Part shown: piece by piece, positions 57,566 to 58,279 of the stretch
Numbering within the stretch: the first letter of the stretch is position 1
Layout: each line of letters opens with the position of its first letter
Source: Escherichia coli
GTDB taxonomy: Bacteria > Pseudomonadota > Gammaproteobacteria > Enterobacterales > Enterobacteriaceae
Direction: 5' to 3' (one strand)
DNA: 64,000 nt
Assembly: GCF_013122565.1 (NCBI RefSeq)
Contig: NZ_CP053258.1
Program-made: the position numbers and the translations under genes
Notes under the pieces: generated by a model
Seen by the model: only the letters and a program-made list of their open reading frames with translations
What the model was told of the DNA's origin: nothing
Database searches by the model: none

Positions 57566-58279
57566 ATGCTGAAGATGATTAAAGATTTTAAATTCAAAAA
57601 ATACATTAAAAAATTACGTGAAGAAGGTTTGTTATTTTATGTTTCTTTCGGGTTTATATTTACATTGTTAATGGAAGTTGATGATCGATTACCGTACTAT
57701 CTTCAACAAGACTTCTTTTTTGATACACTTATAGGATTTATGCCAATCAATATATTCTTTGTTTTGATTTGCACATATATATTTTTCAATGCCGTCCATG
57801 CGCTTATTTCACCCTATAAATTTCAAAGAATTGGTGAGAAATTCCTCTCTGAACTTGATAAAAGAACACAACAAATTGGCTTTATTATTTCATTCATATG
57901 TTTTGGCATGACTTTGTTTTGTGCACTGGTGTGGTTGCTGTTTTTTGATATGAATACTGAAAGTTACTACGCAAAATATACATTAAATTTTTTAGCTGCT
58001 TTTATCATTATGATTATAATTTCTTCAGTAGTTAATCCAGTAATGAACAGAACATTCCAAAAAATGAAGGAATCGGACTCACATGGAAATTCAAAAATAA
58101 TTCTTATAATTATAATCATTATATTATTACTATTATTACCAATTGCGTGCATTATCAATAAAAATAAAACAATTGAAATCAACATTAAGAAAGAAACTTA
58201 TCAGCAAATAAAAGAAAAAACAAAGATGAAACCTGAAGATTATATCAAAAAATTGATTGCTGATATTAAATTCAACTAA
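57566..58279 (+). CDS. Hypothetical AT-rich multi-pass membrane protein (about 5 TM), 237 aa
   Basis: SD AAGGA; hydrophobic segments incl. IILIIIIIILLLLLPIACI; very low GC; 65 bp downstream of hsdR, same strand; followed by a strong hairpin. Confidence 0.6.
   Translation: MLKMIKDFKFKKYIKKLREEGLLFYVSFGFIFTLLMEVDDRLPYYLQQDFFFDTLIGFMPINIFFVLICTYIFFNAVHALISPYKFQRIGEKFLSELDKRTQQIGFIISFICFGMTLFCALVWLLFFDMNTESYYAKYTLNFLAAFIIMIIISSVVNPVMNRTFQKMKESDSHGNSKIILIIIIIILLLLLPIACIINKNKTIEINIKKETYQQIKEKTKMKPEDYIKKLIADIKFN

Follow-up and report, generated by a model that had tools for sequence, protein, structure and literature searches.

An AT-rich membrane gene beside hsdR in the Escherichia coli immigration control region is the counterpart of Salmonella STM4522 and likely encodes a C-terminal ribbon-helix-helix module

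Does a gene that stands directly behind hsdR belong to the type I restriction-modification (R-M) system, or does it only share its place? The question is raised by a window of 64,000 nucleotides from Escherichia coli contig NZ_CP053258.1 (the whole stretch of DNA that was analysed), in which an AT-rich open reading frame (ORF) for a membrane protein follows hsdR on the same strand. An earlier note, made from the letters alone, had described this ORF as appended to hsdR and had suggested that it may serve as an abortive-infection effector or an accessory sensor. We report that the ORF is the E. coli counterpart of Salmonella STM4522, that the C-terminal ~40 residues of its product likely adopt a ribbon-helix-helix (RHH) fold, and that its linkage to hsdR looks positional rather than functional. 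The RHH tail and the STM4522 homology are new here.

The ORF is a genuine gene, read as a translation unit of its own and coding for a protein of ~27 kDa.

57566..58279, + strand: ORF of 237 codons plus stop with ATG start; AT-rich gene for a predicted inner-membrane protein, homologue of STM4522
57555..57559, + strand: Shine-Dalgarno sequence AAGGA, 6 nt 5' of the ATG, invariant in six E. coli alleles

Its coordinates, size (237 aa), strand and 65-bp spacing from hsdR (stop at 57500), its good Shine-Dalgarno sequence and its GC content far under that of the neighbours were all as the earlier note had them, and the ORF is convergent with yjiS. The GC content is 0.263 (GC3 0.269), compared with 0.500 for hsdR, 0.524 for hsdM, 0.547 for yjiR and 0.511 for the whole window. 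That the frame is open merely by chance in AT-rich DNA was ruled out by the probability of 5.7e-10 that 237 codons stay open at this base composition, and by 2000 shuffles of the ORF, in which the longest open stretch in six frames was 57 codons on average and 153 at most. The product is identical to WP_171459878.1 ('hypothetical protein'), and the gene is an annotated CDS in nearly all listed rows of our E. coli genome searches.

The homologue in Salmonella LT2, STM4522 ('putative inner membrane protein'), shares 36% identity over 231 residues (E 2e-44) and lies between symE (STM4523) and yjiS (STM4521). The two proteins are alike in size, in five hydrophobic segments and in a C-terminal strand-helix-helix, and the homology runs over the full length. 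Both genes are AT-rich (GC 0.29 for STM4522) and both abut yjiS at the edge of the immigration control region. They differ in what precedes them, as STM4522 comes after symE following an EcoKI-like mrr-hsdR-hsdM-hsdS cluster, whereas the ORF comes after hsdR of an hsdM-hsdS-hsdR cluster. They differ also in frequency: the Salmonella homologue is common (clusters of 772, 1398 and 1007 member sequences), whereas the ORF is found in only 2% of complete E. coli genomes. The mapping to STM4522 was made via an annotated Salmonella Infantis contig, AFYI01000007.1, which is a 501-kb whole-genome shotgun contig of strain SARB27 misfiled in a 'phages' collection.

The family is small and patchily distributed. 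A HMMER scan of 1.84 billion representative proteins gave 14 hits at E<=1e-3, six of them at E<=1e-10, and a profile search of genome contigs found the family in only two of ~100,000 species representatives. Members come from E. coli, E. fergusonii, Salmonella enterica, Pseudocitrobacter faecalis, Vibrio parahaemolyticus and a few metagenomic sequences, and a distant subfamily occurs in Enterobacter bugandensis and in a genome labelled Pantoea agglomerans. The GC content of the gene is 26-36% in every host compared with 47-55% around it. Distant blastn searches with the Salmonella allele found no match in E. coli, and those with the window allele found no further divergent E. coli alleles. Between E. 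coli and Salmonella the identity falls from 89% for yjiA to 54% for yjiS and 36% for the ORF, and thus the ORF behaves as a piece of an exchangeable cassette at the yjiS edge rather than as a framework gene or an accessory subunit of the type I enzyme. Members are named 'hypothetical protein' or 'inner membrane protein' in the databases, except for one 'MFS transporter'. Literature searches by full text, by accessions and by STM4522 with its neighbouring locus tags returned nothing on the ORF or on the function of STM4522, and the gene is not discussed in the papers on the immigration control region or in the YjiS paper.

With regard to the protein itself, the only recognisable part is the likely RHH module at the C-terminus.

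58160..58276, + strand: RHH module, aa 199-237 (strand ~200-208, helix 209-219, helix 223-233)

The tail pattern consists of a strand (TIEINI), a helix (KETYQQIKEK) and a second helix (MKPEDYIKKLIADI). When the tails of distant members were scanned in isolation against Pfam, they matched NikA-like (7.1e-5), RHH_7 (2e-3), RHH_1 (2.8e-3), FitA-like (0.024) and CopG_antitoxin (0.08) families, while the tail of the window protein, scanned alone, reached no RHH threshold of Pfam. A profile of eight tails aligned with HP0222 (1x93) in the PDB from the strand through the second helix at a marginal E of 0.08. Because RHH strands form only in the dimer, two copies of the tail were modelled as one chain with a Gly/Ser linker between them, on the basis of eight aligned constructs of this kind. 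The resulting model showed strand-helix-helix twice at pLDDT 87-90, in keeping with the RHH fold, in which two chains pair through an antiparallel ribbon. According to this model, the tail would pair two chains into a dimer. The earlier note did not recognise the sequence; this stands for the whole protein, which belongs to no known family, but the C-terminal module had been missed. Known RHH proteins are soluble cytoplasmic DNA binders, and no description of an RHH on a polytopic membrane domain is known to us. Our text searches for such a fusion, which were not exhaustive, also found none.

The membrane domain precedes this tail. Transmembrane (TM) segments were assigned by Kyte-Doolittle hydropathy, and the whole protein was modelled by AlphaFold2 from a 12-sequence family alignment (mean pLDDT 71.8).

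57566..57628, + strand: N-terminal basic segment, aa 1-21, with 8 K/R, modelled as a helix continuous with TM1
57629..57679, + strand: TM1, aa 22-38 (hydropathy, AlphaFold2)
57689..57808, + strand: motif LPYYLQQDxFFDTLIGFMPIN, aa 42-62 (acidic/polar loop and short helix), running into TM2, aa 55-81
57875..57943, + strand: TM3, aa 104-126, with a basic helical extension (aa 84-103) ahead of it; K85, L97 and Q103 conserved
57980..58045, + strand: TM4, aa 139-160 (hydropathy, AlphaFold2)
58097..58159, + strand: TM5, aa 178-198, with the Ile/Leu run (hydropathy, AlphaFold2)

The five hydrophobic segments (residues ~22-38, 55-81, 104-126, 139-160 and 178-198) are each covered by a modelled helix, in agreement with the earlier estimate of about five TM helices. 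The helices of the model span residues 5-41, 49-57, 60-80, 84-125, 133-169 and 174-196, followed by an extended stretch (197-208) and two short helices (209-219 and 223-233). The long Ile/Leu run (IILIIIIIILLLLL, residues 178-191) and the Lys-rich C-terminus (11 K among the final 39 residues) are likewise both present. The motif after TM1 is the best conserved of the family; invariant or nearly invariant positions are L42, L97, G114 and Y135, and also I14, F24, G29, F51, K85, Q103, F142, E224 and Y226.

All family members share a basic N-terminal tail, basic loops 2 and 4, an acidic loop 1 and a short loop 3. This charge pattern, together with five helices, predicts an N-in topology, by which the RHH tail would lie outside the cytoplasm. 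Each member has 7-12 K/R in the tail. In members other than those of Escherichia these are balanced to a net charge of about zero (+8/-8, +7/-8 and so on), compared with +5 in E. coli, where the excess may partly reflect AT bias. The solvent-facing residues of the strand are T/E/N in E. coli, T/T/D in Salmonella and S/E/S in Vibrio. Two readings are suggested by these features: one helix may be mispredicted, so that the RHH module would be a cytoplasmic DNA binder, or the module may be extracytoplasmic and serve for dimerisation or for binding of something else.

Searches of family libraries support the earlier view that the protein belongs to no recognised family: no real match was found in Pfam, NCBIfam (nothing near any cut-off), PADLOC or PHROG. 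In Pfam, the whole protein and the 12 members gave weak matches in hydrophobic sequence only (DUF898, Cation_ATPase_C, MscS_TM etc., E 1e-4 or worse), which we took as composition artefacts. Colicin- or microcin-immunity families of Pfam gave no match, and Rfam at a permissive threshold gave chance matches only. An identity with SieB was rejected, as the Pfam match was seen in one member only (E 1e-3) and in hydrophobic sequence, and neither PHROG matches nor carriage on viral contigs accompanied it. Similarly, the name 'MFS transporter' is unfounded. RefSeq gives it to WP_000916454.1 in E. coli SK0832 (NZ_AP046542.1, 4001-4714), but for SK1144 it lists the identical protein as 'hypothetical protein'; the protein has five TM helices in 237 aa, not 12, and MFS_1 was matched in one member only (E 0.014).

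How, then, does the ORF relate to hsdR? The window locus is the E. coli immigration control region, with yjiA, BrnT/BrnA, Fic, a GmrSD-like gene, hsdM-hsdS-hsdR, the ORF, yjiS, yjiR, rpn and mdtM. The ORF thus lies in a defence island, in agreement with the restriction-locus setting of the earlier note. Among 5426 complete E. coli genomes, the ORF was found in 114 and this hsdR allele (95-99% identity) in 114, all on chromosomes, and the two are adjacent in all rows listed. Two E. coli genomes carry a divergent hsdR (60-80% identity band). In the one examined, GDSC2227PM (NZ_CP135595.1), a 78.7%-identical hsdMSR is followed by an AAA-ATPase and a McrC-family gene, and the ORF is not there. This hsdMSR lies within an integrative element, with a recombinase, two ParB-like genes, IS1 and tRNA-Ile nearby.

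Outside E. coli the company of the gene is different. The Salmonella and Pseudocitrobacter homologues come after symE, behind an mrr-hsdR-hsdM-hsdS cluster that differs from the hsd genes of the window in both type I family and gene order. The type strain of S. enterica subsp. diarizonae (CCUG 30040T, 6698-9700) has yjiA, an AraC-family regulator, an RhtB/LysE-type exporter, symE and a multiply frameshifted copy of the gene, and its immigration control region holds no hsd genes. In Vibrio parahaemolyticus the member sits in an island with VspR, an ImmA-like peptidase and HTH (helix-turn-helix) pair, a Multi_ubiq-ThiF(E1)-BubE ubiquitin-like cluster and a dGTPase that matches the PADLOC dGTPase model; three unannotated small genes stand directly 5' of the member, and a 5'-nucleotidase gene is split. 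In Enterobacter bugandensis, 'Pantoea agglomerans' and metagenomes, the distant subfamily occupies an islet of GC 0.33 compared with 0.55, where a gene for a 148-aa unknown protein is ahead of the member and usually a GFA-domain (PF04828) gene overlaps with its end the start of the membrane gene. No R-M neighbours of the Vibrio, Enterobacter, 'Pantoea' and metagenomic members were found at the loci examined. The ORF-less hsdMSR, the symE contexts, the hsd-less S. diarizonae and the Vibrio and Enterobacter loci argue together that the link between the ORF and hsdR is one of position, and the view of the ORF as a type I accessory appended to hsdR is not upheld.

The signals on either side of the ORF point the same way for its upstream border.

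57514..57539, + strand: GC-rich hairpin GCCGGGGU...ACCCCGGC, then CAUAUUAUUU, between the hsdR stop and the ORF; possible leaky hsdR terminator
58282..58319, strand not assigned: strong 14-16-bp hairpin between the convergent ORF and yjiS (-23.4/-24.6 kcal/mol, z ~-5.6)

The upstream hairpin (-16.1 kcal/mol centroid, z -2.2) has a stem that is invariant in six E. coli alleles whose coding sequences are up to ~6% apart, and a hairpin is likewise present in the matching intergenic regions of Salmonella and Pseudocitrobacter. Such a conserved element in the gap after hsdR speaks against a view of the ORF as just one more, fourth cistron of hsdMSR. Directly 5' of the ORF, no sigma-70-like promoter was seen. 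The earlier note had the ORF bracketed by hsdR and a 'strong bidirectional terminator'. The flanking features are as it said, but the upstream hairpin was overlooked, and the very stable downstream hairpin has no canonical U-run after it on the ORF strand, so that the term is overstated for this strand.

The variation within Escherichia tells about the selection on the gene. Pairwise dN/dS (the ratio of nonsynonymous to synonymous divergence) among six intact alleles is 0.22-0.38, except for one near-identical pair at 0.06, and is thus well under 1, which indicates purifying selection, weaker than that on hsdR (0.05-0.08). The dS of the ORF (0.08-0.20) has a range similar to that of hsdR (0.06-0.20), suggesting that the ORF co-diverged with the cassette. 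Across nine Escherichia protein alleles, only 1 of the 39 sites of the C-terminal tail and 1 of the 21 sites of the N-terminal basic segment vary, compared with 13 of 21 in TM5, the most variable segment, and 7 of 22 in TM4. The frame is intact in six of the seven Escherichia copies read, with alleles up to 6% divergent. The remaining copy, in E. coli A20, is frameshifted at a locus where hsdS is damaged too, and truncated or partial entries of the family are present in databases. In E. coli OkiPb01695, whose allele is closest to that of the window (99.1% identity), hsdM (5038-7373) is annotated as frameshifted and the membrane ORF is intact.

For the function, we tentatively read the protein as a stand-alone barrier or effector at the membrane level against incoming genetic elements, acting in the manner of superinfection exclusion or abortive infection; judged from sequence, such a role seems possible, if well short of probable. 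The basic N-terminal helix, the five TM helices and the dimerising RHH tail would act without the type I enzyme. The conserved RHH head and the basic N-terminus would bind a ligand, either DNA or a protein of the invader, and the fast-evolving helical bundle would block entry or open to leak ions. This reading is suggested by the defence genes that accompany the family in the enterobacterial locus and the Vibrio island, and by its patchy distribution and fast divergence. Several observations weigh against it. All enterobacterial defence-island contexts are one syntenic locus and hence a single observation, and the Enterobacter/'Pantoea' subfamily stands amid housekeeping genes, with an AI-2E-type transporter gene on one side and mmuP-mmuM-tauABCD-hemB on the other. 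PADLOC-DB v2 gave 0 families at E<=1, PHROG gave no meaningful match, the accessions searched are absent from the DefensePredictor supplements, and no member was found on plasmids, phages or viral contigs in the collections searched. The conserved residues of the family alignment show no catalytic-looking set, copies decay (by frameshift in E. coli A20 and the S. diarizonae type strain), and a tail predicted outside the cytoplasm, with Glu or Asp on the outward strand in several lineages, would be awkward for DNA binding. A more specific form, in which STM4522 and the ORF would constitute a new single-gene barrier at the edge of the immigration control region and a periplasmic RHH head would intercept the genome or the entry apparatus of phages or conjugative elements, we regard as unlikely; if true, no RHH module before it would have been seen to work outside the cytoplasm.

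Alternatively, the gene may be horizontally acquired membrane cargo, probably silenced by H-NS, with a role unrelated to restriction or phage defence, and may only happen to occupy the recombination-prone yjiS edge. Its product might, for instance, be an orphan protein that gives immunity to or protection from a toxin aimed at the membrane, or a membrane factor specific to some niche. We hold such a cargo role to be somewhat doubtful, but it would account for the low GC content in every host, the metabolic neighbourhood of the distant subfamily beside the GFA-domain gene, the lack of a match in defence databases, the selection relaxed in comparison with hsdR (dN/dS 0.3 vs 0.06), the pseudogenised copies and the small size of the family (~14 representatives at E<=1e-3 among 1.84 billion). 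It fits poorly with the nearly invariant RHH tail and N-terminus, which imply that some specific interaction is maintained, with the missing match to immunity families of Pfam, and with the two independent islands rich in defence genes, that is, the enterobacterial immigration control region and that of Vibrio. A membrane-tethered transcription factor, whose cytoplasmic RHH dimer would sit on an operator (its own, or that of symE or yjiS, for example) while the bundle senses a signal of the membrane or envelope, appears improbable. RHH modules are overwhelmingly cytoplasmic DNA binders, the tail is assigned to them by the Pfam matches and the linked-tail model, and its K/R count alone favours the cytoplasm; against this, five helices and the loop charges put the C-terminus outside in every member, the tail has a net charge near zero in members other than those of Escherichia, most lineages have Glu, Asp or Thr and not Arg or Lys at the solvent-facing strand positions, and the contexts compared showed neither a conserved partner gene nor an obvious operator.

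That the protein is a dedicated accessory of the type I enzyme, as a membrane anchor, sensor or regulator of HsdR, is highly unlikely in spite of the equal counts of ORF and hsdR allele, their constant adjacency on one strand across 65 bp, their similar dS, and the position of the Salmonella and Pseudocitrobacter homologue at the 3' end of an hsd cluster as well. The intervening hairpin, the McrBC-like genes in place of the ORF behind the 78.7%-identical hsdMSR, the copies after symE with another type I family and gene order, the S. diarizonae locus with symE and a remnant of the gene and no hsd, the Vibrio and Enterobacter members without an R-M neighbour, and the intact ORF beside a frameshifted hsdM in OkiPb01695 all speak against it. 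A decaying remnant without function in E. coli is very unlikely, too. The frameshifted copies, the many truncated or partial database entries and a dN/dS several-fold above that of hsdR would suit such a remnant; the dN/dS well under 1, the frame kept open in divergent copies, the annotation as a CDS, the nearly invariant termini and the invariant Shine-Dalgarno sequence would not.

Some further features of the island were noted. BrnT/BrnA (46581-47184), the Fic-family gene (47312-48046) and the GmrSD-like gene (48090-50189, 699 aa) are all on the - strand. The GmrSD-like protein matches 'Orf5' of PADLOC (3e-216), and its C-terminal ~100 residues (590-690) separately match the candidate-defence family PDC-S18. 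HsdM is unusually long (784 aa). In hsdR (54237-57500, + strand) the final ~900 bp have 42% GC, and residues 1005-1082 of HsdR weakly match the PADLOC candidate PDC-S15 (E 4.6e-7), which suggests that a C-terminal module of HsdR may have been separately acquired. In E. coli SK1144, SK0832 and A20, yjiR is a short pseudogene, mdtM is missing and rpn is directly before yjiN, indicating that the yjiS-distal flank of the island is also variable.

If the gene does serve in defence, a component of the classic immigration control region that is carried by a large share of Salmonella genomes and by some E. coli lineages would have been overlooked, and its product would represent a new architecture of a polytopic membrane domain with an RHH module, the latter possibly outside the cell. 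If it is not, the adjacency to hsdR is still corrected to a cassette position instead of a fourth Hsd subunit, and the RefSeq name 'MFS transporter' is flagged. The family, which has no Pfam or NCBIfam model, could be given one, and its commonness in Salmonella makes the function easy to test.

Finally, the protein may be compared with known systems. P22 SieA and SieB, T4 Imm and lambda RexB are membrane-level proteins of phage exclusion or abortive infection, and the Ltp lipoprotein of TP-J34 reportedly has an extracellular head with a DNA-binding-like HTH fold and blocks genome entry. Like the ORF product, all of these are small proteins of the membrane whose genes stand singly in mobile or defence regions, and Ltp would give a precedent for a fold of DNA-binding type that acts outside the cytoplasm. 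They differ in that the ORF product has no sequence or profile similarity to them, the SieB match in one member (E 1e-3) being the sole trace. In ToxR, CadC and TcpP, a winged-helix domain at the N-terminus is combined with just one TM helix and with a sensor in the periplasm. Like them, the ORF product tethers a module of DNA-binding type to the inner membrane; unlike them, it has a C-terminal RHH after five TM helices and no sensor domain. In comparison with the RHH superfamily (Arc/MetJ/CopG; TraY, AvtR, Arc, NikA, HP0222), the module of the ORF differs by its fusion to a membrane domain of five helices and by its predicted place outside the cytoplasm. Moreover, proteins of the Arc/MetJ type have Arg, Lys or Asn at the base-contacting positions of the strand, whereas the ORF family has acidic or Thr residues there.

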